NCBI GenBank assembly: GCA_963789335.1
Contig: CAWBKH010000002.1
Span: forward strand, 985,355-1,049,354
Direction: 5' to 3'
From: an uncultured Verrucomicrobiae bacterium
GTDB lineage: Bacteria; Verrucomicrobiota; Verrucomicrobiia; Limisphaerales; UBA11358
Length of the DNA: 64,000 nucleotides
Shown: positions 3,410 to 44,931 of the stretch, piece after piece
How the letters are laid out: each line of letters begins with the position of its first letter
Position numbering within the stretch: position 1 is the stretch's first letter
Notes under the pieces: generated by a model
What the model saw: only the letters and a program-made list of their open reading frames with translations
Told to the model about the DNA's origin: nothing
The model's database searches: none
Position numbers and translations under genes: made by a program

Positions 3410-5902
<2,493 letters not shown>

Positions 5903-19498: not shown

Positions 19499-22084
19499 TT
19501 AGTTTGATCGTTGAGTCTTGATGGAAACACTGGCTGCTTCCAAGCCGTCTGACACGGCTTTAAGTTTAATAGTGCCGGTTTGTCCTGCCTTGGAGCGAAC
19601 GATGGCAAGGCAATGACCATTGAAGGCGTTGCGGACATGTGATGGAAACGAGGTCAAATCCGTCGGGTCGCCGTTGTCGGTGGCCACGATTTCGCCCGGG
19701 CCGGAAATTTCGAAATGAACCAGATTATCCGCCCGCGGCACCATCAAGTCATTCCTGTCTTCAACCGTCAATGTGACGAAGGATAGGTCTTTCCCATCCG
19801 CCCGGATTTTGTCGCGGTCGGCGTTCAAAGCGAGTTTTGCCGCCGGGCCAGTCGTTTGCACGACATCGGTCGCCCATTGCTTGCCGCCTTTGTAGGCGAC
19901 GACTTTGACTTTGCCCGGTTCGTATTTCACGTCATTCCAGCACAGGCGGTATTGGTATTCTCCTTTTTTCTTCAATCCAAGGGATTTGCCGTTGAGGAAC
20001 AGTTCGGCGGAGTCGCCGGAGGTATAGACAAACACCGGTGTGACCTGTCCCACGCGGTCCGGCCAGTTCCAACATTGAGGAACGATGTGCGCCATCGGCA
20101 AATCGGGCCGCCAGTGCGCCTGATATAGATAGAAACGGTCTTTCTTGAAACCAGCGAGGTCAACGATTCCGAAGTAAGAACTGCGGGAAGGGTCATTGTA
20201 AGCGTCGAATGGCGTCGGCTCGCCGAGATAGTCAAAGCCGGTCCAGACAAATTCGCCCGCGACGAACGGATTTTCATCCTGGCCTTTGAATTCGGTGTCG
20301 GGAATCGTCGCCCACGGCGGCGCGGAAAGGTCGTAGGAACTCATCTGGAAATCGCGTTTGCCATCGTTCTTGTTGGTGCTGACGGGATAAAAGTATTCGC
20401 CGCGCGAGCTGATGCAGGAGGCGGTTTCACTGCCGAAAATCGGCAAACCAGGATTCGCCGCATGCACCTTGGCATACAGGAAAGGTTTGTAGTTATAGCC
20501 GAAAACGTCGAGGTTTGTCTGAAAACCGTCGAAGCCGGATGCAATGTGGTCGCAGGCGGCAGTGGTTGGGCGCGTTGGGTCTTCCTCGTGGGCGATGCGG
20601 GTCAGTTCGGCCGCAATCCGCGGCCCGGCATGCGTTCCCTGGTCGGGCACTTCGTTGCCGATGCTCCAGAGAATGATGCTGGGATGATTGCGGTCGCGTT
20701 CCAATTCCGCCCGCCAGTCCTTCTCATGCCAGTCGTCGAACAGCAGATGATAATCGTTTGGCCGCTTCCCGCGCTCCCAGCAATCAAAGGATTCGTCCAT
20801 TACCAACATGCCCATCCGGTCGCACAAATCCAGCAACTCCGGCGCGGGGGGGTTGTGGCTGGTGCGGATAGCGTTGCAGCCCATCTCTTGAAGAATCTGA
20901 ATCTGACGCTGCAACGCGCGAACGTTGACCGCCGTGCCCAGCGCGCCCAGGTCGGCATGGTCGCAGACACCGTTAATTTTAACGTGTTCGCCATTTAAGA
21001 AGAAACCGTGGTCGGGATCGAACTTGATGGTGCGGATGCCGAAGGGCGTTTGATATTGGTCAACCAGTTTGCCGTCTCGTTCGATTGAAGTTACAACGAC
21101 ATACTCCTGCGGTTTCTTCAGGCTCCATAGTTGCGGATCTTTGATTTTAATTTGCGTTTCATTCGACTGGTTTCCATGGGCGGGCAACTTTACCCCATCC
21201 ACGGTGATTGAAGCCACGCTCCTGCCGGTGTCACCGTCTGTATTGAGTTCGTAAATCTCATTTTTCACGGACACGGTGGCGTCGGCATTCGCGTCGTTGT
21301 CCACGGTGACTTGGATTTTCACCGTGGCGGCGGAAGAAGTGACTTCCGGTGTGGTGACATAAGTGCCCCAGTGTCCCACATGCACCGGTCCGGTTTTCAT
21401 CAGCCAGACGTTGCGGTAAATGCCGCCGCCCGGATACCAGCGCGAGGAATCGGGTGGATTGTCGAGTCGGATGGCAAGGACGTTCTCGGCGCCGGCATTG
21501 ATATATGGCGTCAGGTCACGTTCCCATGAGGAATAACCGTAGGGCCAGCCACCGATGTAATGACCATTAAGCCAGACATTCGCGTAAGACATCGCGCCAT
21601 CCACGTCCAGGTAAATGCGGCGGCCTTGGTCGGAGGCGGGAACGACGAAGTGCTTGCGATACCAGCCGACGCCTTCCCAAGGCAGCTTGCCGGTTTCGCC
21701 GGGAGCTTCCTGATTAAACGGACCTTCGATAGCCCAGTCATGAGGAAGGTTCAACTGCTGCCAGCCGTCGTCGTTGCAGTCTGGTTGAACGTAGGAAACA
21801 TCGGCACCGAGGTTGCCGGATGGACGCGCCGTTGGTTTGCCGTCCTTGACAAACTCATTGCCGGTGGCCATCACCCAGGGTTTGATGTTCGTGTAACTCA
21901 GTTCGTCGCCGATGCCGGGCGGATCATTCTTTGTGAAACGCCAATCTGAATCAAACGACAGCCGTTCGCGCACGGGGACTGACGCTGAAACGGCGGCGGT
22001 CAACAGGTTCAAGGCAAATAGGACAGCGATAATCAGATTCCACCAGCCAATTTGAAATGATTTGAAAGACATGGTTGTTTTCAT
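19499..22084 (-). CDS. glycoside hydrolase family 2 (beta-galactosidase-like), secreted
   Basis: 861 aa. Signal/anchor, NAIRTSHNPPAPELLDLCDRMGMLVMDE, and WSIGNE (acid/base region). Confidence 0.85.
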   Translation of the reverse strand: MKTTMSFKSFQIGWWNLIIAVLFALNLLTAAVSASVPVRERLSFDSDWRFTKNDPPGIGDELSYTNIKPWVMATGNEFVKDGKPTARPSGNLGADVSYVQPDCNDDGWQQLNLPHDWAIEGPFNQEAPGETGKLPWEGVGWYRKHFVVPASDQGRRIYLDVDGAMSYANVWLNGHYIGGWPYGYSSWERDLTPYINAGAENVLAIRLDNPPDSSRWYPGGGIYRNVWLMKTGPVHVGHWGTYVTTPEVTSSAATVKIQVTVDNDANADATVSVKNEIYELNTDGDTGRSVASITVDGVKLPAHGNQSNETQIKIKDPQLWSLKKPQEYVVVTSIERDGKLVDQYQTPFGIRTIKFDPDHGFFLNGEHVKINGVCDHADLGALGTAVNVRALQRQIQILQEMGCNAIRTSHNPPAPELLDLCDRMGMLVMDESFDCWERGKRPNDYHLLFDDWHEKDWRAELERDRNHPSIILWSIGNEVPDQGTHAGPRIAAELTRIAHEEDPTRPTTAACDHIASGFDGFQTNLDVFGYNYKPFLYAKVHAANPGLPIFGSETASCISSRGEYFYPVSTNKNDGKRDFQMSSYDLSAPPWATIPDTEFKGQDENPFVAGEFVWTGFDYLGEPTPFDAYNDPSRSSYFGIVDLAGFKKDRFYLYQAHWRPDLPMAHIVPQCWNWPDRVGQVTPVFVYTSGDSAELFLNGKSLGLKKKGEYQYRLCWNDVKYEPGKVKVVAYKGGKQWATDVVQTTGPAAKLALNADRDKIRADGKDLSFVTLTVEDRNDLMVPRADNLVHFEISGPGEIVATDNGDPTDLTSFPSHVRNAFNGHCLAIVRSKAGQTGTIKLKAVSDGLEAASVSIKTQRSN

Positions 22085-22179
22085 AAGGATCGCGTTGACA
22101 GCCTTTTAATTACGAGGAAGGAGATTTCGTTTCAATACTTTACTGACTTCAATGGCAGCCGTTTAGCCGGACTTTGCAT

Positions 22180-22194
22180 AGCCTCACAAATGTA
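22180..22194 (-). promoter_or_regulatory. conserved 15-mer TACATTTGTGAGGCT (copy 1, oriented toward the GH2 gene)
   Basis: Exact 15/15 match with 27473-27487 and 29318-29332; about 95 nt upstream of the GH2 ATG. Confidence 0.6.
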
Positions 22195-22258
22195 TAGTTT
22201 TGATGCCTTGGCGAATTTCCTGATGCAACAATACATTTCGCAAGTGTAACATCGGCCC

Positions 22259-23560
22259 ATGCGCACAATTTTCCCTGTCTGGCGACGCGCGTGGACGCAT
22301 GCCGCCGTCTTTTCATTTCTGGCCGTTGGATGCGTGGGTTCCCTTCACGCCGCGTCCGAAACCAATTCACGACCATTCTATCTGGGCGCGGACATTTCCA
22401 CCCTCCTGCAGGTCGAGCAACGCGGCGGCATTTACATGGACGGCGACAAGCCCGGCGACGCGCTGGCCATTTTCATGAAGCACGGCTGGACTTGTTTCCG
22501 GTTGCGCATTTGGGTGGACCCCACCAATGGCGTGAACGGACTGGAATACACGATCAAGCTGGCCAAACGCATCAAGGACGTCGGCGGAACGTTCATGCTG
22601 GATTTCCATTATTCCGACTGGTGGGCCGATCCGCAAAAGCAGAACAAGCCCGCCGCCTGGGCCAATCTGGATTTTGACGCGCTGGTCCAGCGAATGCAAA
22701 CCTACACCGCCCACGTCATCAAAACGCTAAAGGACGCCGGTGCCACGCCGGATTTCGTTCAGATCGGCAACGAAATTACCGGCGGTATGTTGTGGCCCGA
22801 CGGCCAGGTGAAAGTTCCGCTTTCCACCGTCAAGGTGTTCCAAGGCGATGTAAAGGTAATCAAACCGCCTGAACCCTACAACGACGCCAAACAATGGAGC
22901 CATCTTATTCGTCTCATCAACGCGGGCATCGCCGGCGTTCGCTCGGTCACCACGCCCCGGGACCACGTTCGCATCATCATTCACATTGATTGCGGCGGCG
23001 ACTGGCCGGTCACCAAGTGGTACTTTGATCATCTTGCCAAAGCCGGGGTGGACTACGATATTATCGGCCAGAGCTATTATCCGAACTGGCACGGCAGCTT
23101 GCAGGATGTCCGCGACAATCTGCGAAACACAATTGAGCGTTACCATAAAGACGTGATGATCGTCGAGACCGCATATCCCTCACGGGATGTTCATCCCTCA
23201 CCGGCTGCGGCCAAGTACATGGTCTGGCCCATGACGCCAGCCGGACAAAGGCAATTTCTGTCTGACTTGATCAAAACGGTCAAGGCCGCGCCTGATGGCC
23301 GTGGGATTGGCGTCATCTACTGGCATCCGGAAGCAACCTATATTCCGGGAGCCACCGGCTGGTGGAGCCGGCCCGACGCGAATTCGCTTTTCAATGACCG
23401 CGGTTATCCGCTTCCGGCAATGAATGTGCTTGCCCCGTGGAGTAACGCGCCGAGTGCAGACGAGAGCCAGATGGGGAAATACTCCACGGGGCAAGGTCTT
23501 CAGCCCGAACCAAACTCCGGAATGGTCAATGCAAAAAATCCAGCCGAGTCTCATGATTGA
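22259..23560 (+). CDS. glycoside hydrolase family 53 (arabinogalactan endo-beta-1,4-galactanase)
   Basis: GADISTLLQVEQRGG, FRLRIWV, VQIGNEITGGMLWP and IGQSYYPNWHG are GH53 hallmarks. Confidence 0.85.
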   Translation: MRTIFPVWRRAWTHAAVFSFLAVGCVGSLHAASETNSRPFYLGADISTLLQVEQRGGIYMDGDKPGDALAIFMKHGWTCFRLRIWVDPTNGVNGLEYTIKLAKRIKDVGGTFMLDFHYSDWWADPQKQNKPAAWANLDFDALVQRMQTYTAHVIKTLKDAGATPDFVQIGNEITGGMLWPDGQVKVPLSTVKVFQGDVKVIKPPEPYNDAKQWSHLIRLINAGIAGVRSVTTPRDHVRIIIHIDCGGDWPVTKWYFDHLAKAGVDYDIIGQSYYPNWHGSLQDVRDNLRNTIERYHKDVMIVETAYPSRDVHPSPAAAKYMVWPMTPAGQRQFLSDLIKTVKAAPDGRGIGVIYWHPEATYIPGATGWWSRPDANSLFNDRGYPLPAMNVLAPWSNAPSADESQMGKYSTGQGLQPEPNSGMVNAKNPAESHD

Positions 23561-26500
23561 ATTCCTGCGGTCGTACCCACGGCGCTCGGGCGGAAGTTCC
23601 CCAAGCCGGTTGGGGTACGCCAAGAGCTTGAGTTGCTTGATGCTCTGGACTGGTTTGCTGGCGCTGGTTGCGCTTCCAGCGGCGGGCCAAACTCCGGTTG
23701 CATCGGTTCTTCAGCAGGTGACCAATGTTGTTCAGGTTTCCAGGCTCGCTTCTCAAAATCCAGACACCGCCTATTCAATCCATCTGGAGGGTAACATTTT
23801 GTGGGCAAATCCGGCGCGCGGAAAATTTGTTTTGCAGGACGCCTCTGGCACCGAGGAATTGGAGATGAATTTACATGGACAATCCGTGCAACCGGGTCAG
23901 CGGGTGCGACTGGATGGCGAGGGCACCATCGCGAGACGAGGAGCGGGTTTTCAGCTCGGCGTCATGGGGCCAGTAGTGGATGACGATGGCATCCATACGA
24001 TGATTGAAAAGTCCGGGTCTGTTTATTTGCGGGCCGGTCGGCATCCGTTTTGCGTGGACTGGTTTAATGGCCTCGAAAAATACGGGTTGGAGGTGGAGTA
24101 TCAGGGACCCAATCTACCCCGTCAAAAAATTCCCGATTCGGCGCTCTTCCGGGTCCAAACGAACGCCGCCGGCGCCACCAATTTTGTAAACGGATTGGAT
24201 TACGCCTGCTATGCAGTTACCGGCGAAGTTTTGTCTGACTTCAGTCTGTTGACGCCGCTTAAAACCGGGACCGTCTCCAATTTTGACCTCAGTGTCATGA
24301 CCCGCAACGATAACGTGGGACTGCAATTTACCGGCTTGCTTCAAGTGCCAAGTGAAGGCCTCTATACTTTTTATCTCAAATCAGACGATGGCAGTCAATT
24401 ATACATTGATGACCGGTCGCTCCAGTTGGAAGTAATCGGGCAGGTGGAACTCCCGAAAGCGCGCAAGATGATTATCGGGCAGATGCTGGACAAGAACTGT
24501 GATTATCAAAGCGTTGTGGTTGAAGGGAGGATAACGTTTGTGAGCCAACGAAAGGATGGCTGGGAACTGGAATTAGCTTCCGAAACCGGCCGCCTCCAAC
24601 TGGAGTTGGCCGATGGCACCGGCCTGTCGGCGGAACACCTGTTGAACAGCCTGGTCCGGGTGGTTGGGGTTTGTCAAAGCGCCTACGACGCCAATGGGGA
24701 GAAAGTTGGCGGCATCCTGTTGGTATCAAATAAACGCGCAATAACAATTCTCCAAGCAAACAGCCCGACAATCAAAAATCTGGATGCCAAGCAGGGAATG
24801 CTTCCGGTACTGACTACCGCCAGCGAAGTCCATCAGTTAACCCGGGAAGAGGCACAGCGTGGATATCCCGTCAAAATCCAAGGTGTGGTTACCTGTGTCC
24901 TGCCGGAACGCCAGGCCTTTACCATTCAAGATACCACCCGCGGGCTCTATGTGGTTGATTCCTCCGAGAGCCGATCCGTGCCGCCCAAAATCGGCGAGTA
25001 TTTGGAGGTCGAAGGCAAAACGGATCCGAGCCTGTTCGCTCCGATCGTTGACGCGGATCGTGTGAGAGAACTGGGTGTGGGGCGTTTGCCCCAGCCGGTG
25101 CATCCCGCCTGGGATCAACTGATGAATGGAAGCCTGGATGCCCAGTATGTCGAGTTGCAAGGCATTGTCACAACGGTCAGCACCAATAGTGCGACTCTGT
25201 TTACCGGGGACGGTCGAATCAAATTGGAGTTGCGGGTCATCGGGATGAAAACGGCGCAAATGGAACGTTTTGAGGACGCCGTCGTTCGCGTGCGGGGATG
25301 TTTGTTCGCGTCTTGGGATTATGTGACGCATCAGGTAAAAGTGGGTGAGATTCGGGTTTATGGTGCGGAAATATCGGTTGATCAACCCGCCCCGGCGGAT
25401 TTATTTTCACTTCCCCTGAAAACCGTTGCGGAATTGCTGCAGTTTAATCCGCAAGCCGGTGTGTTCCAGCGGGTTAAAGTCTCCGGACAAATTATTCATG
25501 CACAAGCCCCGGAATATTACATGATGGACGGTAAAAATGGTCTGCAATTTGTTCTAAAGAAGCCAGTTCCGGAACTGGAACCTGGCGACCTGGTGGAAGT
25601 TGTTGGTTTTCCAGGATTGAGCGGCGCTTCTCCCCTTTTGCACGAAGCGGTGGCGCGCAAGATCGGTCACGCTGCTTTGCCCGAAGCAAGAAAGTTGTCC
25701 CCTAACAATTTAATCCAGGAGGAGTATGACTCGACCCGCGTGAAGGTGGACGGGTTGCTGATGAGTGTGAGAGAAACACCGGTCGGCCAGGCGCTGGAGA
25801 TGCGGAACGGCGTCCGCACCTTTATGGCCCGACTGAACATGAAGGATTATTCGGCACACTCGCTCGCCCCGGGCAGTCGTTTGGAATTGGTTGGAGTCTA
25901 TCTTGGCGAAGGCGGAAACCGGGCCATCGGCCAAGACATCACTTCCTTCGAGCTGTTGCTTAATTCCCCTGCGGACATCACAGTGCTGGCGCGGCCCCCA
26001 TGGTGGACGCTCGAACGATTGCTGATCATCGTTGGAGTACTGGTGTGCGTGCTGGCCGCCGCCGCCCTGTGGATTACTCAACTGCATCGGCAGGTGGAAC
26101 AACGTACCACGGAACTTGGAGCGCAAATCCAGCAACGCCAGAACGTCGAGCACCAGCGGGCCATGGAACAGGAACGCGCCCGAATTGCCCAGGATCTGCA
26201 CGATGAACTCGGCTCGGGCATCACGGAAATCAGCATGCTGGCCGCCCGGGCGAAATTTGCGACCGCCCCCGACGAAAAACGAAACCGATATCTGGAACAG
26301 GCACGCGAGAAAGCGCGGGAGATGGTCACCGCCCTGGACGAAATTGTTTGGGCGATGAACCCGAGGCACGATTCCCTGGCATCATTGGTCAGTTATTTTT
26401 GTCTTTACGCGGATCGTTTCCTAGGTTTGGCCAATATTGGCTGGCGCCTGGAAGGTATGCCCGGAACATCCGATCCCATGGTGGATTCACGGCATCGGCA

Positions 26501-26774
26501 CCAATTATTTCTAGCTTTCAAGGAAGCGCTGACCAATGTGGTGCGTCACTCCGGCGCTTCTGAAGTGCGCTTCAGCATCCGGGTTGAACAGGAACAATTG
26601 CGGTTGACCATTGCCGACAATGGACATGGGTTCTCTTCGGAGGGCCACACCGAAGAAATGGACGGCGTGGTCAATATGCAGACGCGCATCGAGAAATTGG
26701 GCGGAAGATTTGAAATAACCAGTGAAACCGGGCATGGTACTACGGTTCGGTTTTACATGCCTTTAGATTCATGA
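23529..26774 (+). CDS. sensor histidine kinase (HisKA_3 type) with a large extracytoplasmic region containing a PA14-like domain
   Basis: C-terminal RIAQDLHDELGSG (H-box) and DNGHGF...GHGT (HATPase). One TM helix near aa 860. PA14-like segment GLEVEYQG...GLYTFYLKSDDGSQLYIDD. The start is uncertain (23529 or 23553). Confidence 0.8.
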   Translation: MQKIQPSLMIEFLRSYPRRSGGSSPSRLGYAKSLSCLMLWTGLLALVALPAAGQTPVASVLQQVTNVVQVSRLASQNPDTAYSIHLEGNILWANPARGKFVLQDASGTEELEMNLHGQSVQPGQRVRLDGEGTIARRGAGFQLGVMGPVVDDDGIHTMIEKSGSVYLRAGRHPFCVDWFNGLEKYGLEVEYQGPNLPRQKIPDSALFRVQTNAAGATNFVNGLDYACYAVTGEVLSDFSLLTPLKTGTVSNFDLSVMTRNDNVGLQFTGLLQVPSEGLYTFYLKSDDGSQLYIDDRSLQLEVIGQVELPKARKMIIGQMLDKNCDYQSVVVEGRITFVSQRKDGWELELASETGRLQLELADGTGLSAEHLLNSLVRVVGVCQSAYDANGEKVGGILLVSNKRAITILQANSPTIKNLDAKQGMLPVLTTASEVHQLTREEAQRGYPVKIQGVVTCVLPERQAFTIQDTTRGLYVVDSSESRSVPPKIGEYLEVEGKTDPSLFAPIVDADRVRELGVGRLPQPVHPAWDQLMNGSLDAQYVELQGIVTTVSTNSATLFTGDGRIKLELRVIGMKTAQMERFEDAVVRVRGCLFASWDYVTHQVKVGEIRVYGAEISVDQPAPADLFSLPLKTVAELLQFNPQAGVFQRVKVSGQIIHAQAPEYYMMDGKNGLQFVLKKPVPELEPGDLVEVVGFPGLSGASPLLHEAVARKIGHAALPEARKLSPNNLIQEEYDSTRVKVDGLLMSVRETPVGQALEMRNGVRTFMARLNMKDYSAHSLAPGSRLELVGVYLGEGGNRAIGQDITSFELLLNSPADITVLARPPWWTLERLLIIVGVLVCVLAAAALWITQLHRQVEQRTTELGAQIQQRQNVEHQRAMEQERARIAQDLHDELGSGITEISMLAARAKFATAPDEKRNRYLEQAREKAREMVTALDEIVWAMNPRHDSLASLVSYFCLYADRFLGLANIGWRLEGMPGTSDPMVDSRHRHQLFLAFKEALTNVVRHSGASEVRFSIRVEQEQLRLTIADNGHGFSSEGHTEEMDGVVNMQTRIEKLGGRFEITSETGHGTTVRFYMPLDS

Positions 26775-27406
26775 CCAAAATTGCCATTGTAGAAGACAAT
26801 CGGGTAATTCGTGAAAGCCTCATGGAATTCGTTCATGCCGACCCGGAATGTCGTTGTGTCTGTGCCTGTGCGACGGCGGAGGAGGCCTTGAAAGTAATTC
26901 CCAAACACGAGCCCGAAATCGTGTTGATGGATATTCAATTGCCCAATATGTCGGGCATTGACTGCATCGCTCAACTCAAACAGATACTGCCATCGGTCCA
27001 CATCATCATGGTAACCGTGTATGAAGACACCGAGCGGATATTCAAGGCCTTGCGCATGGGTGCCTGCGGTTATTTATTGAAACGTTGCGCGCCCGAGGAA
27101 CTTATTGCCGCAATCCGCGAGGTGCGGCAGGGCGGCGCGCCCATGTCGCGGGAGATCGCGCGCAAGGTTATCGCTTCATTTCAAGAACCGCTGACGACAG
27201 CCATGGAGGTGGAGGACCTCACGTCCCGCGAACGGGAGATTCTGGAATTGCTGGCCGACGGATTCCCCAACAAGGAAATTGCGGACCGCGTCGGACTGAC
27301 CGATGGCACGGTGCGCTGGCATCTTCGGCACGTTTACAACAAATTGCACGTCCGCTCCCGCACTGAAGCTGCGCTCAAATTCCGTTCCACCAAACAGGAT
27401 AAATAG
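26771..27406 (+). CDS. NarL/LuxR-family response regulator
   Basis: REC domain (VLMDIQLPNMSG) plus C-terminal LuxR HTH (LTSREREILELLADGFPNKEIA). ATGA overlap with the kinase. Confidence 0.9.
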   Translation: MTKIAIVEDNRVIRESLMEFVHADPECRCVCACATAEEALKVIPKHEPEIVLMDIQLPNMSGIDCIAQLKQILPSVHIIMVTVYEDTERIFKALRMGACGYLLKRCAPEELIAAIREVRQGGAPMSREIARKVIASFQEPLTTAMEVEDLTSREREILELLADGFPNKEIADRVGLTDGTVRWHLRHVYNKLHVRSRTEAALKFRSTKQDK

Positions 27407-27472
27407 GATAGTCGTTGAGCTAAAACAAGTTACACTATTTTGACTAGACTAAAGGCAGGCCTCGCAATACTC

Positions 27473-27487
27473 TACATTTGTGAGGCT
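27473..27487 (+). promoter_or_regulatory. conserved 15-mer TACATTTGTGAGGCT (copy 2)
   Basis: Exact repeat; 61 nt upstream of the PEP-CTERM gene ATG. Confidence 0.6.
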
Positions 27488-27548
27488 AGGCAATTTCAGG
27501 GGTTGGGGCATAATCAAAGCAATTAGCAAACCCGTAACTCAATAATCT

Positions 27549-28319
27549 ATGAAAGCTGTTTCTTATATTACTTCGGTAGTTGCCGCGTTAACATTGGCCA
27601 CGCTGCCCGCCAAAGCGCAAGTCACTTATACTGGCACCGGCACCGCGAACGGCGGCGGCGCGAATGGAGAAGGCATTAGCAGTGTGGTGATCAACAACAC
27701 CGCAAGTGATATCACTTTTACGATTAATTCGAGTGCGGCGCAGAGTGCATACGTTCAGTATTATGTGCTGATGCAGTATGTTGGTCAGGGGGCCAGTGGA
27801 AGTTCAGCACTTTTCAACTCGGCGGGGGCCTTAAACGGTTGGGGCCCCAGTCTTGGCATCAGTACTGGTGAAAACGCCTTCGCCGCCACTTGGAACACTG
27901 GTGCCAGTGCAGAAACATATAGCGGTGGTGTTTGGACGCAAAATGCATCAGTGAGCTATGATGCTGGCGGCACGGGAGATAATCTCCTCACGTTCACCGT
28001 ACCGTTAAGCAGCCTCGGGTTGAGTGTCGGCAGCCAGTTCTACTTCGACGTTGTATCATCGTATCCCAATGCTGAAGGGCAATCTGCTTATGGTTCATTG
28101 GACAGCACGAGTGGTTATCCCGCCGAAACAGATGGTCTTTATACACCTTGGAACGGGACCTCAGCTTATGACGCTGCTACGGATGCCGGTGGTACGACCT
28201 TCGGTACGGCGGCGAGCATGTACACCGTCGTACCCGAACCGGCCACGTACGCTTTGTTTGGATTGGGTGGTTTGCTCATGATCATGCGCCGCCGGGTACT
28301 CGCTACTCGCCAGTCTTGA
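27549..28319 (+). CDS. PEP-CTERM sorting-domain secreted protein
   Basis: Signal peptide, Gly/Ser/Thr/Ala-rich body, and C-terminal VPEPATYALFGLGGLLMIMRRR. Confidence 0.85.
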   Translation: MKAVSYITSVVAALTLATLPAKAQVTYTGTGTANGGGANGEGISSVVINNTASDITFTINSSAAQSAYVQYYVLMQYVGQGASGSSALFNSAGALNGWGPSLGISTGENAFAATWNTGASAETYSGGVWTQNASVSYDAGGTGDNLLTFTVPLSSLGLSVGSQFYFDVVSSYPNAEGQSAYGSLDSTSGYPAETDGLYTPWNGTSAYDAATDAGGTTFGTAASMYTVVPEPATYALFGLGGLLMIMRRRVLATRQS

Positions 28320-28339
28320 TCCAGGTCATTGTGAAAGAG

Positions 28340-28380
28340 AAAAGTGCTGCTTGTGGAAACGAGTGGCACTTTTGTTGTGT
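28340..28380 (+). terminator. probable terminator hairpin
   Basis: AAAAGTGCTGC / GAGTGGCACTTTT stem (11 bp including wobbles) with a 12-nt loop and a GTTGTGTTG tail. Confidence 0.5.
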
Positions 28381-28466
28381 TGTCGTGGGAGTCGGCTTTC
28401 CAGATCAAAATTCGACGCTTTCGTTAGCTCGGGTGACCAGCCTGTGCGTTGGAAAGATTCACCTGT

Positions 28467-29267
28467 ATGCCTCCAATATCGCAACAGATGTCCCGTAACC
28501 ACCAGCCCAAAGCGTTCCCGGCTTTCGCTCTGATTGAATTATTGGTGGTGATAGCCATTATTGCCGTCTTGGCAGCCTTGCTCCTGCCTGCGCTGTCGGC
28601 GGCCAAATTCCGCGCCAAGTGCATTAGTTGCACGTCGAACTACCGTCAGTGGGGCATTGTGGCCAACATGTATGCCGGCGACAACTCGAGTGGGATGCTG
28701 CCATCTTTCTCCCTGCCCGGCAACGTCAGCGGCCATAACGCGTGGGATGTATCCTTGGACATGGTTCCGGGGTTGGCGCCTTATGGTCTGACCATACCGA
28801 TGTGGTTTTGTCCGGTGCGGCCCAATGAGTATGATGCAGCCAATGCTCAATTCAGCCACTACTACAATCGCCCGATTTCCAATCTGACGGATCTGAATCG
28901 GGAATTGCAATTACGTAATGGCAATACCGGTAGCTTCGTGGTCTTATACCATGCCTGGTGGGTGCCGCGCGCGCTCGGCGATCCCCGGTTCCAGTTTCCT
29001 TCACCCGATTTGGCAGGCACGTACTGTCGCACCACCAATGGCTGGCCAAGCCGGGTGACAGATCGGATCACCAGCACACAACCGATCATCAGCGATTATT
29101 GTTACGCGTCGGGCTTTAATACGAATACGGCGGCAATGCTCGCGGGTCATTCCATTGGGAACAGGGTGGTCAACGTCAACCTGGCGTTCGCCGATGGCCA
29201 CGTGGAGACCCATCAGCGTTCCATCATCCAATGGCAGTACACCGGCGTGGACTCAGCCTTTTATTGA
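28467..29267 (+). CDS. pseudopilin-like protein (prepilin-type N-terminal cleavage/methylation domain)
   Basis: [29 protein letters not shown] and C-terminal [10 protein letters not shown], as in the H-X9-DG/DUF1559-like family. Confidence 0.8.
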
Positions 29268-29317
29268 AGGAATGACAACGACAATCTGTCATCATAAGAA
29301 GCGACAAATAAGAACCA

Positions 29318-29332
29318 TACATTTGTGAGGCT
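29318..29332 (+). promoter_or_regulatory. conserved 15-mer TACATTTGTGAGGCT (copy 3)
   Basis: Exact repeat; 86 nt upstream of ATG 29419. Confidence 0.6.
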
Positions 29333-29418
29333 GGATAAATCCCCAAAATCGCTCATAGTTGTACACACCATCATAGAAAACGACAACCAAAGTGCGTTCG
29401 TACAAACCAATTCAACGT

Positions 29419-30795
29419 ATGAAATTCTTTAAAACTTCGGCCCAAAAGTGCGGCTGCTGGTCAGCTATTTTCACACTCTCCGCCTTCACAGCGGCAGCAG
29501 ACATTCAGGTAACCTATAATGTGGACATGTCGGTCCAAGAACAGCTTGGAAACTTCAATCCGGCGAATGGGGACACGGTTTTTGTCAGTGGCAATTTTGC
29601 GACAACGAACGGTGTGTGGTTGCAAACGGCCACGGATGGATCAACCAACTACATATTGACGTTGGTGCCGGGCACGACCAACTATACTGGTACTTTTACC
29701 ATCACCAACGGGGTTGGAACTGAGGAGAATCACCAGTTTGTGATAAATCCGGGAGGCAATTTCGCCGGCACCTTGATATGGGAACCCAACGTCATCGGCG
29801 GTCCAAACCGATATTTCCCTGTGCCTGCTGTGAACACCAATTTGCCTCTGGTGTTTTTCAATGACGTTTCAAATGCAAATCAGTTGGTCACCATTCCCGT
29901 GACCTTTTCGGTGGACATGTCGGTTCAAAGCGCCTTGGGAAACTTCGATGAGGCCAATGATATTGTTTTGGTCAGCGGCGATTTCAACGGTTTCACCGCC
30001 AATTCCGCAACCGTTATGACGGATAACGGTGCCAATGTCTGGTCTGCGACTTTTGACGTTACCAACTCGATCGGCGCCACCGAAAACTATAAATTTCTCT
30101 TTCTACCCTTTAGCGGCAATCCTTCGAGTGTGTGGGAGGTGGACGGGGTCGGACCTAACGGTGCCAATAACCGCCAATTTGTACTTCCAGACACGGCTAC
30201 CAATCTGCCGATTGCTTACTTTAACAACCTTACCAATGCGAACAGTCTGGTCAGCATCCCTGTGACCTTCCAAGTAAACTTGGGTGTAAAGGACGCCTTG
30301 GGGACTTTCACGCCGGGTGTGGACACGGTCACAGTGTCCGGCGACATCTCGCTTAATGATTGGAGTGCCACAAGTTATCCATTGACGAATACTGTGGCCA
30401 ACCCTGACCTTTATACTGGCACTTATAATGTGGCCAACACGGTGGGTGCCACTACAAGTTATAAATTTGTGGTGGATGGCGGCAGCGGTTTGGGTTGGGA
30501 AGCCAACAATGTAGGGCCGGGGGGCGCTCAAAACCGTCAGCTTGTAGTGCCCAATTCCGCCACCAATTTGCCCATGGTGTATTGGAATAACATTGGCGAT
30601 CTTGGGAAGCTGTCCGTCAGCAACAACGCGGGTAACGCGGTCTTGAAGTGGACTGCGGGCACGCGGGTTCGCCTCCAGAGTTCCACCAGCCTGACCAGTG
30701 GCAGCGGCTGGCAGGATGTTCCCAACACCCAGGGATCAAATTCGGCGTCAATCAACATAAATGGAAAACAATTTTTCCGGTTGACTGGGCCGTGA
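29419..30795 (+). CDS. secreted protein with three tandem ~120-130-aa beta-sandwich-like (CBM-like) repeats and a C-terminal ...FFRLTGP module
   Basis: The repeats start at IQVTYNVDMSVQ (29503), IPVTFSVDMSVQ (29893) and IPVTFQVNLGVK (30255). Each ends ...NR(Y/Q)F..P....NLP..(F/Y)(F/W)N. Confidence 0.75.
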   Translation: MKFFKTSAQKCGCWSAIFTLSAFTAAADIQVTYNVDMSVQEQLGNFNPANGDTVFVSGNFATTNGVWLQTATDGSTNYILTLVPGTTNYTGTFTITNGVGTEENHQFVINPGGNFAGTLIWEPNVIGGPNRYFPVPAVNTNLPLVFFNDVSNANQLVTIPVTFSVDMSVQSALGNFDEANDIVLVSGDFNGFTANSATVMTDNGANVWSATFDVTNSIGATENYKFLFLPFSGNPSSVWEVDGVGPNGANNRQFVLPDTATNLPIAYFNNLTNANSLVSIPVTFQVNLGVKDALGTFTPGVDTVTVSGDISLNDWSATSYPLTNTVANPDLYTGTYNVANTVGATTSYKFVVDGGSGLGWEANNVGPGGAQNRQLVVPNSATNLPMVYWNNIGDLGKLSVSNNAGNAVLKWTAGTRVRLQSSTSLTSGSGWQDVPNTQGSNSASININGKQFFRLTGP

Positions 30796-30856
30796 GTCTC
30801 GGTGCAAACCGGCCACGCTGACGTTTTGTCAGCTTGGAATCGCAAACTGGAGCACG

Positions 30857-30905
30857 AAGCTGGAGCTGTTGAAAACGAAACCTGAAATAGCTCCAGCTTT
30901 GAGTT
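30857..30905 (+). terminator. probable terminator hairpin
   Basis: Perfect 11-bp stem AAGCTGGAGCT/AGCTCCAGCTT, 21-nt loop, then TGAGTT. Confidence 0.5.
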
Positions 30906-30936
30906 AATGTAAAAGAACTAAATCGAAAGCAGCATT

Positions 30937-32241
30937 TTGAAATTGAAGTTTATAAATCTGATATTATGCGCGGCGGCGCTTTTTGCCCCTTGGCAGTCGC
31001 CCGCGCAGAATAATTTTATCGCAGGCGCGGATCTTTCGCTCCTGGCCTATTTTGAAACGAACGGAATTGTGTACAAAGACAATGGTCAGACGGGAGACGC
31101 AATTCAAATTCTAAAAAATCACGGCATTAACTGCGTACGTTTGCGACTGTTCACGAGCAGCGCCGCGCAGGCGCAGGCCGATCCGTACAATTACATCAAC
31201 AATCTCACGTATACCGTCCCGTTGGCAGTGCGCGTCAAAAATGCCGGGTTGCAGTTCTGTCTTGATTTTCATTACTCGGACACCTGGGCCGATCCCGGTC
31301 ACCAGGCCATCCCTGACGCTTGGACAAACCTGGACTTCATCCAGCTTGTTCAACAGATGCGCACCTACAACAGCAACAGCATTGCCGCCTTTGCCGGCGC
31401 GGGAGCGATGCCTGATTATGTGCAGATCGGCAATGAGATCACCGCTGGCATGTTGTGGCCGTATGGATATGTTTCGGGCAGCTACAACACGTCATGGTCG
31501 CAACTCGGTCAATTAATGAAAGCAGCAGTTCAGGGCATCCACGACGCGGTGAATGCGACGGGCGCTCAAATGCCAAAAATTATTGTTCACATTGACCGCG
31601 GTGGAGATTGGAGCACCACGGAATGGTTTTTTGATAACCTGACCTATCAAGGGGTTCCTTTTGACATCATCGGCGAGAGCTATTACCCATTTTATCACGG
31701 ACCGTTGACGAATGTAACCACCTGTCTCAATAACGCCGCTCAACGCTACGGCAAGCCAATCTTCATAGCCGAGACAGATTTCCCCTGGATTTACTCGACG
31801 AACATTTACGGCATTCCGGCCACCACCAATGGTCAGGTTCAATTTGTGGTCGCACTGGCCCAAGTTGTGAAGATCGTGCCAAACAATTTAGGAGCCGGAA
31901 TTTTTTGGTGGGGAGCGGAATATCAATACCCCAACGCAAACGAGGCTGGAGTTGGCACCCGATCGCTCTTCGATAACAACGGCAACGTTCTGCCAGCGGC
32001 GGACGCCTTGGGCCAGCTCTCAGCTCCGATTGATTTAAACGTCAGCTTCAGCGGCTCCGATTTGATGCTGCAATGGCCATTGAGTGGAGCGGGAATGGAC
32101 TTGATGACGACAACAAATCTGGCGCCGCCAATGGTTTGGCAGTCTGTGACCAACCCCATTCAAAGTACGGGAACGGTGTATAATGTAACCCTGCCCTTGG
32201 ATTCCGTGCAGAGTCGTTTTTACCGTCTGCAATCAAATTGA
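30937..32241 (+). CDS. glycoside hydrolase family 53 (second copy) with a C-terminal ...FYRLQSN module
   Basis: GADLSLLAYFETNG, VRLRLF, VQIGNEITAGMLWP and IGESYYPFYHG. The start is a TTG per the ORF track. Confidence 0.85.
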   Translation: MKLKFINLILCAAALFAPWQSPAQNNFIAGADLSLLAYFETNGIVYKDNGQTGDAIQILKNHGINCVRLRLFTSSAAQAQADPYNYINNLTYTVPLAVRVKNAGLQFCLDFHYSDTWADPGHQAIPDAWTNLDFIQLVQQMRTYNSNSIAAFAGAGAMPDYVQIGNEITAGMLWPYGYVSGSYNTSWSQLGQLMKAAVQGIHDAVNATGAQMPKIIVHIDRGGDWSTTEWFFDNLTYQGVPFDIIGESYYPFYHGPLTNVTTCLNNAAQRYGKPIFIAETDFPWIYSTNIYGIPATTNGQVQFVVALAQVVKIVPNNLGAGIFWWGAEYQYPNANEAGVGTRSLFDNNGNVLPAADALGQLSAPIDLNVSFSGSDLMLQWPLSGAGMDLMTTTNLAPPMVWQSVTNPIQSTGTVYNVTLPLDSVQSRFYRLQSN

Positions 32242-32275
32242 CCATGTCGCAAGCAACAAAGATCAGAACAGAAAA

Positions 32276-33094
32276 ATGACGACCGAAAAGCGATTGAAAT
32301 GTTCTGCAACACTGTTGGGGTTCACCCTCATTGAATTGCTGGTGGTGATCGCAATTATCGCCATACTTGCAGCGATGCTGTTGCCGGCGCTGGCCGCGGC
32401 CAAAAAGCGCGGCCAAATGGCTGTTGATATCAGCAATAACCGGCAAATTTTGCTGGCAATGACCATGTATGCCGGAGACTACAACGATCGTATGCCCCAG
32501 CCCGGCTGGGGTACGTTTGATGATTGCTGGGCGTCCTCGTCGAATATAAACAATCATCTTGGCGGGAGCTATAGCCTTTATCAGCAAAATTACACTAATC
32601 AATTGGCGGACTTCCAAAATGGCCAGCTCTATCCCTACCTCAAGGATCCAAAGATCATGCTGTCTCCGGCTGATGTACAGAATCAGCAATTCTACCTGCG
32701 TCCAATCTATATTACCAGCTACGTTTGGAATGGTGCGGTCATCGGGTACGATAACGGGGCTTTCCCCACTTCCAGTGGCCACGTGCCCGTCCCCTTCAAA
32801 CTGGGCCAGTTCAAGTCAAGCGCGATCCTGATCTGGGAAGCCGACGAGACACAACCTTTCTTTTTTAATGACTTTGCCAATTATCCTGACCAAGGGATTT
32901 CAGGCCGTTATGGCAAGGGGGCGATAGTCGGATACTTCGATGGCAGTGCCGGGCGGATAAGTATCGGTGACTTTTCAGCCTGGGCTGGCTGCGCGAACGG
33001 TGTCTGGGACGTACAAGGTGGATCACGATGGCGATTTGTAAAAAATCTTCCCAATCAACTGTGGTGCAGCCCCATCAATAACGGTGCCCCGTGA
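32276..33094 (+). CDS. pseudopilin-like protein (prepilin-type N-terminal cleavage/methylation domain), second copy
   Basis: [32 protein letters not shown] and C-terminal VGYFDGSAG. Confidence 0.8.
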   Translation: MTTEKRLKCSATLLGFTLIELLVVIAIIAILAAMLLPALAAAKKRGQMAVDISNNRQILLAMTMYAGDYNDRMPQPGWGTFDDCWASSSNINNHLGGSYSLYQQNYTNQLADFQNGQLYPYLKDPKIMLSPADVQNQQFYLRPIYITSYVWNGAVIGYDNGAFPTSSGHVPVPFKLGQFKSSAILIWEADETQPFFFNDFANYPDQGISGRYGKGAIVGYFDGSAGRISIGDFSAWAGCANGVWDVQGGSRWRFVKNLPNQLWCSPINNGAP

Positions 33095-33398
33095 CCCATT
33101 CGAAGACGATCTTCGCCATTTTGTCAGCCGGGCCAATTTGCTCATGAAGATAAGCAACAAGCAGATTATTCAAACGCCGCTAACGGCCAACGAGATCAGC
33201 AAGCGAATATCGGATGTGAAGCTTAAGCCGGTCGGACAAAGACACGGATGAACGCTACAGTTTGATAGCCTAAAAAGCGCGGCTCGGACATTGGACTTAT
33301 CAAAACCGGATAACTTATCAGTGAAGCCATAGAATCATATCCGATTCTTTGCCATCTGGTTACAATGACACTTTTACGCTTGACGTTTTTCTCAAACC

Positions 33399-33424
33399 AG
33401 CTACCTTGTTAAAAAAAGGTAGCT
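33399..33424. promoter_or_regulatory. perfect 9-bp inverted repeat AGCTACCTT-N8-AAGGTAGCT upstream of padR (candidate operator)
   Basis: Read directly; it ends 13 nt before the padR ATG. Confidence 0.55.
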
Positions 33425-33437
33425 TGCGGTATATTTA

Positions 33438-33767
33438 ATGATGAGTGTGAACGAAAAATTTTCGGCGATCCGGAAGGGCCTGCTCGAATTCCTCGTGCTG
33501 CAGATTATCGCGGCGGAAAAGGTCTATGTGGCGGACATTTTGAAGCAGTTGAGCACGACTCAATTCGCCACCCAGGAAGGCACGCTGTATCCGTTGTTGA
33601 GCAAAATGCGCCGCGAAGGGCTTCTGGATTACGAGTGGAAGGAGTCCGAAGCCGGCCCGCCTCGCAAATATTACCAACTGACCGCGAAAGGCCGCGAGCA
33701 GTTGCGAGAAACGCTGGAGTATTGGATTGAGATCAACGGGACGGTGAAAAAACTGGGGCAAAAATAG
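33438..33767 (+). CDS. PadR-family transcriptional regulator
   Basis: LEFLVLQII...GTLYPLLSKMRREGLLDYEWKESEAGPPRKYYQLTAKGRE. Confidence 0.9.
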   Translation: MMSVNEKFSAIRKGLLEFLVLQIIAAEKVYVADILKQLSTTQFATQEGTLYPLLSKMRREGLLDYEWKESEAGPPRKYYQLTAKGREQLRETLEYWIEINGTVKKLGQK

Positions 33768-33784
33768 AAAGGAAACAACCTGTC

Positions 33785-34948
33785 ATGAATAAGGTCATTA
33801 CCATCAATCTGGGCGGCAACGCCTATCAACTCGAGGAAGGCGGCTATGACGCCCTGCGCGCCTATCTGGAAACCGCAACCGCCCGGCTGCAAGGCAATCC
33901 CGACCGGGACGAAATCCTCTCGGACATCGAACGGGCCATCGCGGAGAAGTTCCGCGCGCTTCTGTCCAGTCATAAAACGGTCGTCGAAACCAAGGAAGTC
34001 GCCGCTGTTCTCGCGCAGATGGGGCCGATTGAAGTGGAACCGGGCGAAACCACAGGCACGGGCGCAAGGAGTACCGGCAGCCAGAGCAGCGCGAGCGGAC
34101 AGAAGACGGCGGGAGAGGAACGGGCGGCAGGGAGTAGTGGAGCGCCAAGGCGGCTCTACAGGATTCAGGAGGGCGCGATGATTGCCGGCGTGTGCAATGG
34201 AATCGCCGCCTATCTGAACATCGATCCCACTCTCGTGCGGATTGCCTTCGTTCTTTTGACGATATTTTGGGGCATGGGCTTGATTGTCTATGTGGTGATG
34301 GCGATTGTGGTGCCCGAGGCGCGGTCGCCGGAAGAAAAGGCGGCGGCGTCCGGTTTCCCCTCGACGGCGCAGGAATTCATTCGGCGCGCGAAAGAAGGAT
34401 ATTACGAGGCGATGAGGGGCTTTCCGGACCGCAAGGCCCGCCACGAATGGCATCGCCGGTTTAAGCGGGAAATGCGCACGCATGCGGATCAGTGGCGGTA
34501 CAACTGGCACAGCTATTGGGCGCGACATGCACCGTATCATCCCGGAATGGGTTTTGCGCTGCCCTTGCTCTCGTTGCTGCAAGGCGCGGCGACGGTTCTG
34601 TTAATCTGCGCCCTAATCTCACTTCTGGCGACGGGCACCGTGTTCGGGCTGGTGCTCTCGGCCAGCGTGCCGGTGTGGGTCGCGGCGTTGCTGTTGCTCA
34701 TCGCCTACGGCATTCTCGTGGGACCGCTGAAATTTGCGCGGCGCTCGTGTTATTGGGGCTTGGGCCAATCGCAATGGGCTTGGTCGTTCGCTTCCTTTTT
34801 GGATGCAGCGATCTGGCTCGCGGTGGTCGTCGCCCTGCTGTGGCTGGCCGTCCATTATTTTCCGGAACTGCGCGACGCAATTCGCGGTATCCCTTCAGTC
34901 CTGCATCAAGCTGCGGACGACATCCGCACGTGGTGGCATGGGAAGTGA
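33785..34948 (+). CDS. PspC-domain membrane protein
   Basis: RLYRIQEGAMIAGVCNGIAAYLNIDPTLVRIAFVLLTIF plus several C-terminal TM helices. Confidence 0.8.
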   Translation: MNKVITINLGGNAYQLEEGGYDALRAYLETATARLQGNPDRDEILSDIERAIAEKFRALLSSHKTVVETKEVAAVLAQMGPIEVEPGETTGTGARSTGSQSSASGQKTAGEERAAGSSGAPRRLYRIQEGAMIAGVCNGIAAYLNIDPTLVRIAFVLLTIFWGMGLIVYVVMAIVVPEARSPEEKAAASGFPSTAQEFIRRAKEGYYEAMRGFPDRKARHEWHRRFKREMRTHADQWRYNWHSYWARHAPYHPGMGFALPLLSLLQGAATVLLICALISLLATGTVFGLVLSASVPVWVAALLLLIAYGILVGPLKFARRSCYWGLGQSQWAWSFASFLDAAIWLAVVVALLWLAVHYFPELRDAIRGIPSVLHQAADDIRTWWHGK

Positions 34949-44206: not shown

Positions 44207-44920
44207 ATGAACTTTGCCGTTCTCCAATTCCCCGCCTCCAATTGCGACCAGGACGCCATTCACGCCCTGCGCGATGTGCTCGGCCAGTCGGCGCGCTACG
44301 TCTGGCACAAGGAAACCTCGCTGGGCGACGCCAACGCTGTCATCGTGCCCGGCGGTTTCAGTTACGGCGATTATTTGCGTTGCGGCGCGGTTGCGCGGTT
44401 CAGCCCGGTGACGCAGGCGGTGAAACAATTCGCCGACAACGGCGGTCTGGTGCTCGGCATCTGCAACGGCTTTCAAGTGCTCACAGAAGCCGGCCTGCTG
44501 CCCGGCGCGCTCGTCCGCAACCGCGACCTGCAATTCCATTGCGAACACATTTTCCTGAAGACCGTCACGCCCGACTCGCCGTTTACGAACAAAATCCCCG
44601 CGGGCAAATTGCTGAAAATTCCCATCGCCCACGGTGAAGGCTGCTATTTCGCCGACGAGGAAACCTTGGCAAAGCTCAAGGCGAACAACCAGATTTTGTG
44701 GCAATATTGCGACGCGGACAGCAACCTGACTGACACGGCGAACCCGAATGGTTCGCTGCTGAACATTGCCGGCATCTGCAACGAGCGCCGCAACGTGGCC
44801 GGCCTCATGCCGCATCCCGAACGCGCCAGCGAACTCGCGCTCGGCAGCGACGACGGCAAATGGATTTTGGAGAGCATGATCACCGCGCTCAAAAACAAAA
44901 ACGTCGCGCAAGTCGCTTAA
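44207..44920 (+). CDS. purQ: phosphoribosylformylglycinamidine synthase glutaminase subunit PurQ
   Basis: [20 protein letters not shown] and HPER. Confidence 0.95.
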
Positions 44921-44931
44921 TCCAAACGATC

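Follow-up and report, generated by a model that had tools for sequence, protein, structure and literature searches.

Among transcription factors with a GerE/LuxR-type helix-turn-helix (HTH), the LuxR/TraR-type proteins recognize sites of 18-20 bp (lux box, tra box) that lie at or abut the -35 element of sigma-70 promoters, and a single site can serve divergent promoters. A NarL site at Escherichia coli nirB is located at -69.5. At yeaR (-43.5) and ogt (-44.5 and -77.5), dimers of NarL occupy 7-2-7 sites that lie a short distance upstream of the -35 element (PMC10853779). Here we describe a DNA element from an uncultured Verrucomicrobiae bacterium (assembly GCA_963789335.1) that appears to belong to the same general class. 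It is built around the 15-mer TACATTTGTGAGGCT and was found in a 64,000-nucleotide stretch of contig CAWBKH010000002.1 (positions 985,355 to 1,049,354, forward strand), hereafter called the window. Judging from sequence, the element is probably the site of a NarL-type activator that governs a galactan utilization regulon, including a divergent operon through which the activator would regulate its own synthesis. The 15-mer is most likely the core of a cis-regulatory element of ~29 bp in a soil and peat clade of Verrucomicrobiota (Limisphaerales/Verrucomicrobiia-type metagenome-assembled genomes, or MAGs).

The locus resembles the E. coli NarL/NarP system in several respects. Its response regulator is a full-length NarL homolog, a HisKA_3 kinase is encoded next door, and the element has a core of ~16 bp with a candidate imperfect dyad of the 7-2-7 kind. 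In contrast to NarL, the signal is presumably a plant cell wall glycan perceived via a PA14-containing kinase rather than nitrate, the element is far more invariant, and one target promoter appears to be leaderless. The class II-type position of the element and the use of one site for divergent promoters recall LuxR/TraR-type systems, but the protein here is a phosphorylation-dependent response regulator rather than an acyl-homoserine-lactone receptor, and the dyad is much weaker.

A further comparison can be made with the polysaccharide utilization loci of Bacteroidetes, which likewise carry a glycan-specific sensor inside a degradative locus and co-regulate glycoside hydrolases with surface proteins. 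However, those loci are controlled by hybrid two-component systems, SusR, or extracytoplasmic function (ECF) sigma/anti-sigma pairs, whereas the locus described here has a classical kinase and a NarL-type regulator, not a hybrid AraC-type protein. There are no SusC/SusD genes in this locus, the surface proteins are of the PEP-CTERM and pseudopilin-like (N_methyl) kinds, and the promoter architecture is sigma-70-like (TAnnnT as the -10 element) instead of following the -7/-33 pattern of Bacteroidetes.

Exact copies of the 15-mer face three genes of one locus

The window contains the 15-mer three times without mismatch, at 22180-22194 (minus strand), 27473-27487 (plus strand), and 29318-29332 (plus strand). 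Each is oriented toward its own gene: copy 1 lies 95 nt from the ATG of a GH2 gene (at 22084), copy 2 lies 61 nt from that of a PEP-CTERM gene (27549), and copy 3 lies 86 nt from that of a CBM48-like repeat gene (29419). A first-pass annotation of the window had claimed these coordinates, orientations, and distances, and all of them held when rechecked in the sequence; its gene identities likewise agree with Pfam. No exact match to the 15-mer was obtained in 100 dinucleotide-preserving shuffles of the window. A scan of the window that tolerated up to 3 mismatches found no copies beyond the three, and the shuffle test at 3 mismatches is uninformative because 3 matches were reached by 5 of 100 shuffles, leaving the exact-match test as the relevant one.

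The genes concerned, as assigned by Pfam, are as follows. The GH2 beta-galactosidase gene (19499..22084, minus strand) is divergent from the GH53 endo-beta-1,4-galactanase gene (22259..23560, plus strand), which is the first gene of the regulator operon. It is followed on the plus strand by genes for a sensor histidine kinase that combines PA14, HisKA_3, and HATPase_c domains (23553..26774; 1073 amino acids, as in P0001) and for a NarL/LuxR-family response regulator with a receiver domain and a GerE HTH (26771..27406), which is the proposed binder of the element. The real start of the kinase gene is at ~23553 (from P0001), where it overlaps the end of the GH53 gene. Downstream on the same strand are the PEP-CTERM protein gene (27549..28319) and the gene for the protein with weak CBM48-like repeats (29419..30795); like the GH2 gene, both are predicted regulon members.

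The element precedes homologs of the same genes across Verrucomicrobiota

Kinase homologs number in the hundreds at 60-83% identity in Verrucomicrobiota MAGs, and the exact 15-mer is unchanged in orthologous loci of dozens of such MAGs, whose sensor kinases are 55-83% identical. The orthologous loci that we fetched (kinase identity of 71-79%) have the same gene order and keep the exact 15-mer, with intergenic flanks that have diverged. In these loci, the sites are located between the GH2 and GH53 genes, after the regulator gene, and before N_methyl genes.

A wider scan with the 21-nt pattern WWCYNTACATTTGTGAGGCTR covered 185,579 species, each represented by one genome. This yielded 63 stretches, of which ~57 are Verrucomicrobiota-type contigs. 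Matches in Victivallales and other non-Verrucomicrobiota stretches (L018, L025, L032, L034, L040, and L053) were treated as chance, given an estimate of ~17 chance matches for a pattern of 21 nt; the copy in L018 sits within an open reading frame (ORF) for a 464-amino-acid FGGY kinase. Almost all copies in the Verrucomicrobiota stretches lie between genes and are oriented toward a homolog of a window gene. The non-redundant sites face genes for PEP-CTERM proteins (21 sites, ~51-65 nt from the start codon), GH2 enzymes (14 sites, ~73-113 nt), N_methyl proteins (11 sites), and CBM-repeat proteins (7 sites, ~86-90 nt), and the remaining targets are GH53 genes and a few genes for other large proteins containing Ig or pectinesterase domains. 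Frequent occurrence at random or intragenic positions, which the first-pass annotation had listed as evidence against a regulon, was therefore not observed. Likewise, none of the housekeeping genes of the window (including ruvB, recA, H+-PPase, accA, and purL) has a copy of the element upstream.

The kinase-regulator pair adjoins copies of the motif in all loci with visible context, and most copies lie beside the pair. This linkage persists in loci that have a kinase of just 55-62% identity and another gene order, with the PEP-CTERM gene divergent from the kinase-regulator pair. In some genomes, the GH2 gene with its copy and the regulator locus sit on separate contigs (L026/L008 and L041/L013), which fits a trans-acting factor.

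Some promoters carry tandem copies that are 56-86 nt apart (L046, at 1502 and 1588; L028, at 4739 and 4795), an arrangement reminiscent of the ogt promoter with its tandem NarL sites. In L010 (at 96 and 272) and L030, two copies ~180 nt apart are in opposite orientation, each facing its own gene. In addition, the typical Verrucomicrobiota galactan locus was seen in MAGs labeled as Limnocylindrales, Limnocylindria, Acidiferrales, Sulfopaludibacter, Bifidobacteriaceae, Bifidobacterium, and Hyphomicrobiales. These contigs (L014, L019, L020, L023, L027, L028, L035, L038, L043, L049, L052, L058, and L069) are probably mis-binned or mislabeled; the 15-mer might be used to flag such contamination.

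The 15-mer lies within a larger conserved element upstream of predicted sigma-70-type promoters

Alignment of 67 non-redundant contexts revealed an extended consensus of ~29 bp, AAAACCA (or AATACTC)-TACATTTGTGAGGCT-AGGCAAA. The C at position -3 is invariant, including in sites that were not chosen by the extended pattern. In the window, copy 1 (22173..22201, minus strand) reads AAAACTA-TACATTTGTGAGGCT-ATGCAAA, copy 2 (27466..27494, plus strand) reads AATACTC-TACATTTGTGAGGCT-AGGCAAT, and copy 3 (29311..29339, plus strand) reads AGAACCA-TACATTTGTGAGGCT-GGATAAA. The A-GCAA that follows copies 1 and 2 (ATGCAA and AGGCAA), which had been noticed earlier as a shared feature of these two copies, is real and belongs to the conserved extension.

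Downstream of the element, information reappears at +42/+43, corresponding to the end of a -10-like hexamer (CATAAT, CATAGT, CATATT, TATCAT, TAGATT, and similar). A hexamer was scored as -10-like if it has A at position 2, T at position 6, and agreement with TATAAT at 4 or more of its 6 positions. Such a hexamer starts 21-23 nt past the 15-mer in 36 of the 67 sites; for comparison, the average for other five-offset windows is 4.9 sites, and none exceeds 11. Many of the sites outside the 36 have TACnnT at the same position.

A generic promoter scan predicted a sigma-70-type promoter for the PEP-CTERM gene (27487..27514, plus strand), with a -35-like TAGGCA at 27487-27492, a 16-nt spacer, and a -10 CATAAT at 27509-27514. 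This call puts the 15-mer directly upstream of a weak -35-like box, with its last base common to both. The predicted -10 of the CBM-repeat gene promoter, CATAGT (29354..29359, plus strand), begins 21 nt after the 15-mer. Assuming the usual 7 nt from the -10 element to the start, transcription would begin near 27521 for the PEP-CTERM gene and near 29366 for the CBM-repeat gene, and the element would be centered near -43.5 at these structural-gene promoters.

The leaders of the GH2 genes (22085-22179 in the window, and GH2-type sites elsewhere) have in common a conserved block, CAAAAGRTTGCCAT, that lies ~15-28 nt after the element and is not a recognizable -10. It could represent an additional protein-binding site or a promoter of unusual type.

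One copy probably also serves a divergent, apparently leaderless operon

Copy 1, which faces the GH2 gene, is also 64 nt upstream of the GH53 ATG on the opposite strand. The intergenic region between GH2 and GH53 contains a predicted divergent promoter for the GH53-kinase-regulator operon (22221..22261, plus strand), in which TGATGCAA (22221-22228) is followed after 18 nt by the -10 element TAACAT (22247-22252) and after a further 6 nt by the ATG at 22259. The order motif (in reverse), 26 nt, TGATGCAA, 18 nt, TAnnnT, 5 or 6 nt, and ATG recurs in 25 of 26 distinct sequences. These sequences span two locus types (L002-L071), namely the region between divergent GH2 and GH53 genes and that between divergent PEP-CTERM and kinase genes. 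This geometry apparently corresponds to a leaderless transcript beginning at the ATG of the first operon gene (GH53, or the kinase in the second locus type), and relative to such a start the element would be centered at about -69.5. The presence of TAnnnT at a conserved divergent geometry indicates that the clade uses sigma-70-type -10 elements of this form.

A degenerate fourth copy that the first-pass annotation had placed before the first GH53 gene at 22229-22244 is actually at 22231-22246. It falls in the spacer of the GH53 promoter and is not conserved in orthologous loci, and we therefore regard it as a chance resemblance.

Two loci separate the upstream function from the forward one. 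In L071, a related locus, a reverse-oriented copy before GH53 matches the 15-mer at 14 of 15 positions, has an intact core (ACATTTGTGAGGC), and lies 64 nt from the ATG. Here, the gene upstream of the copy is on the same strand as GH53, so the copy faces no gene, and the AGGCAAA box has been lost. A transcription factor site would be maintained under these circumstances, whereas a core promoter box would not. In L005, an insertion of ~2.9 kb carrying HigB/HTH_3 and other toxin-antitoxin-like genes parts GH2 from GH53, and each of the two genes keeps a copy at the original spacing. Together, these two loci argue that the upstream function works without a forward-facing promoter.

The L005 insertion is flanked by a 27-bp direct duplication, GGCAAAACCATACATTTGTGAGGCT (5066-5093 and 8054-8081), which is also present in L031. 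The duplication may stem from a long target duplication, from site-specific integration at the operator, or from selection to keep both promoters regulated.

A NarL-type regulator is the candidate binder

The response regulator is the only regulator gene that is constantly linked to the element, and its product (26771-27406) is most likely the protein that binds it. In a PDB search, the closest solved relative was E. coli NarL, both for the full-length protein (E = 3e-35) and for the HTH. The NarL residues that read bases are K188, V189, and K192 (PMC10853779), and these align to R, W, and R in the window regulator, so that it would be expected to recognize another sequence. Among 25 regulators of 78-100% identity, the recognition helix TVRWHLRH does not vary, and the best 120 regulator homologs are all at least 85% identical, making the regulator far more conserved than the kinase. 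This conservation of the protein and of its recognition helix parallels the invariant DNA core.

The core of the element can be read as an imperfect 7-2-7 dyad, C(C/T)NTACA-TT-TGTGAGG. In this register, 5 of 7 positions of CCATACA-TT-TGTGAGG obey the symmetry, compared with 3 of 7 in the alternative register TACATTT-GT-GAGGCTA. The positions of about -43.5 and -69.5 are of the same type as those of E. coli NarL, with the qualification that the promoters here are predicted. In contrast, the element is unrelated to the NarL consensus TACYYMT beyond TAC (5 of 7 positions agree for TACATTT and 4 of 7 for TAGCCTC). Given these mismatches and the R/W/R residues, the element would not belong to the NarL regulon proper but would be the analogous site of a NarL-family paralog.

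We propose the following mechanism. The PA14-domain histidine kinase would sense galactan or a galacto-oligosaccharide and phosphorylate the NarL-family regulator, a dimer of which would then bind the element through the candidate dyad. At the structural-gene promoters (PEP-CTERM, CBM-repeat, pseudopilin-like, and GH2), the bound site would abut a weak -35-like (T)AGGCAA, with a sigma-70-type -10 element (CATAAT or TAnnnT) located 21-23 nt downstream. The single site between GH2 and GH53 would also serve, from the other strand, the leaderless promoter of the GH53-kinase-regulator operon from about -69.5. A site upstream of the operon that encodes the kinase and regulator implies positive autoregulation.

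Several observations weigh against this model. Every position given relative to +1 was derived from a predicted -10 hexamer, and GH2-type promoters have no clear -10 at the expected offset, carrying instead a conserved block, AAAAGRTTGCCAT, that lacks A at hexamer position 2. The 5/7 dyad has an estimated P of ~0.013 per register, which is not significant when alternative registers are allowed for. An exact-match genome scan is biased toward perfect copies; among copies that lie beside a selected exact copy, and thus were not themselves selected by the scan, 85 are exact, 10 have one mismatch, and 3 have two. The mismatches in these neighboring copies are confined to positions 1, 2, 4, 5, 14, and 15. 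The motif also varies less, and is less symmetric, than is typical of sites for dimers. Such invariance and asymmetry suggest that part of the motif may be read by RNA polymerase or a second factor. RNA polymerase, and not the regulator, is probably what recognizes the upstream A-tract and the downstream AGGCAA.

Alternative explanations

The same regulator acting negatively, or another factor with its gene elsewhere, could use the element as a repressor operator and occlude the -35 region until galactan is present. NarL-family proteins can repress, and the site does overlap the -35-like box of the forward promoters. However, these boxes (TAGGCA or AGGCAA) are weak, as is typical of activator-dependent promoters, and at the divergent operon the site is ~30 bp away from the -35 region, on its upstream side, which makes occlusion there unlikely. 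Furthermore, no other regulator gene is conserved in the loci, and the kinase-regulator pair is the only constant neighbor. On balance, we consider repression unlikely, and activation by the NarL-type regulator remains our preferred explanation.

The first-pass annotation had pointed out that the first 8 nt of the motif (TACATTTG) fit TAnnTTTG, the -7 element of Bacteroidetes. If TACATTTG were such a box, read by the housekeeping sigma factor, transcription would start within or just after the 15-mer. The orientation of all three window copies toward their genes would agree with such a core promoter. In the searchable literature, however, TAnnTTTG is described only for Bacteroidetes and Chlorobi, and in the window it is not enriched (20 found versus 17.95 expected) and is absent before housekeeping genes. 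A -33 TTTG at a spacing of 19-21 nt occurs in just 2 of the 67 non-redundant sites. A general promoter box would be degenerate rather than invariant at 15 of 15 positions, and it would not be restricted to the genes of one regulon as the 15-mer is. Sigma-70-like -10 elements are instead found 21-23 nt downstream of the motif, clear TAnnnT elements are present at the divergent leaderless promoter in the same clade, and the L071 locus has kept a reverse-only copy that faces no gene. We therefore give this explanation very little credence, and the match of TACATTTG to TAnnTTTG is coincidental. Thus, of what the first-pass annotation had proposed, the Bacteroidetes box is not supported, whereas the idea of a shared, regulon-defining cis-element that is the probable target of the adjacent NarL-type regulator has good support, given that the motif is conserved, regulon specific, oriented, and linked to the kinase-regulator pair.

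Equally improbable is a promoter for an ECF-type sigma factor, with the upstream (G/A)AAC as its -35 box and part of the 15-mer as its -10 box. The AAC just before the core, with its invariant C at -3, does recall ECF -35 boxes, but the supposed spacer does not vary, in contrast to the variable 16-17-nt spacers of ECF promoters, a CGT-type -10 is lacking, and no sigma/anti-sigma gene is present in any locus examined. Nor would a directional sigma promoter account for the reverse-only copy, which keeps a fixed distance from a TAnnnT promoter, and the enrichment of -10-like hexamers downstream would be left without explanation. A sigma-54 promoter was rejected because the GG...GC spacing in GAGGCTAGGCA is 6 nt rather than 12 nt.

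Least probable of all is a motif acting at the RNA level (in a 5' untranslated region or small RNA) or a mobile-element remnant or attachment site, which the duplication flanking the L005 toxin-antitoxin insertion might suggest, since Rfam gave 0 matches at E <= 1 over 21900-33500, no conserved structure surrounds the element (the linear sequence alone is kept while the flanks diverge), the predicted transcription starts are downstream of it, no integrase or transposase is associated with it, and it keeps a fixed promoter geometry before a defined gene set.

Other features of the window

Three further genes of the locus do not have a copy of the element upstream. A second GH53 gene (30937-32241) and a second N_methyl pseudopilin-like gene (32276-33094), both on the plus strand and assigned by Pfam, are probably co-transcribed with the CBM48-like repeat gene. 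The third is the first N_methyl pseudopilin-like gene (28467-29267, plus strand; Pfam), whose upstream intergenic region (28374-28466) lacks the element here, as is also the case in L064. In contrast, the orthologs in L014, L023, L052, and L067 carry one, which indicates that the wiring of the regulon differs between species.

Two structures lie between genes of the locus. A strong terminator-like hairpin with a 15-bp stem (28340-28373) follows the PEP-CTERM gene, and a perfect 10-bp inverted repeat, AGCTGGAGCT...AGCTCCAGCT (30859-30900), is located between the CBM-repeat gene and the second GH53 gene. The latter could be an attenuator or an mRNA processing or stability hairpin inside the presumed operon.

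Downstream of the locus, a PadR-PspC gene pair (33438-34948) is preceded by TTGTTA, 18 nt, and TATATT (33406-33443), ending 2-5 nt before two adjacent ATGs. This is possibly another leaderless or near-leaderless start. Farther along, at 44860-48660, is an ORF of 1266 amino acids that contains PurL-type domains (FGAR-AT linker, AIRS, and AIRS_C, each twice) and whose N-terminal ~440 amino acids match the "predicted pPIWI-associating nuclease" families pP_pnuc_1 and pP_pnuc_2. The G+C content falls to 0.50 across 44-46 kb in this region. The ORF could be a true fusion or two genes merged by the ORF call.

Implications for Verrucomicrobiota

Free-living Verrucomicrobiota are major degraders of plant polysaccharides in soil and peat. 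To our knowledge, almost nothing is known about the transcription signals and regulons of these organisms. Our literature searches on Verrucomicrobia promoter motifs, on the motif string, and on PEP-CTERM proteins together with galactan gave no relevant result. We probably have here an activator site and promoter cassette of a galactan-responsive two-component regulon, not described before but conventional in mechanism. Mechanistically, a two-component activator site is of an ordinary kind, and in this sense the surprise is modest. Regardless, the findings offer a well-defined candidate regulator-operator pair in a poorly studied phylum. They also provide evidence that this clade uses sigma-70-like TAnnnT -10 elements and leaderless operons, not Bacteroidetes-type promoters.

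In addition, the element ties the degradation of galactan by GH53 and GH2 enzymes to PEP-CTERM and pseudopilin-like proteins, whose role is obscure, and it provides a sequence tag for galactan loci in metagenomes, even in mis-binned contigs. A broader proposal, which we put forward tentatively and with more doubt than confidence, is that a single PA14-kinase/NarL-type pair co-induces GH53, GH2, PEP-CTERM, N_methyl, and CBM- and Ig-repeat proteins from a near-invariant 29-bp cassette, in what would be a phylum-specific counterpart of the Bacteroidetes polysaccharide utilization locus. If this is true, the cassette would represent a portable galactan-inducible promoter, together with a leaderless autoregulated operon, for a phylum with almost no characterized transcription signals. 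Likewise, these families of Verrucomicrobiota surface proteins would constitute a previously unrecognized apparatus for glycan capture.

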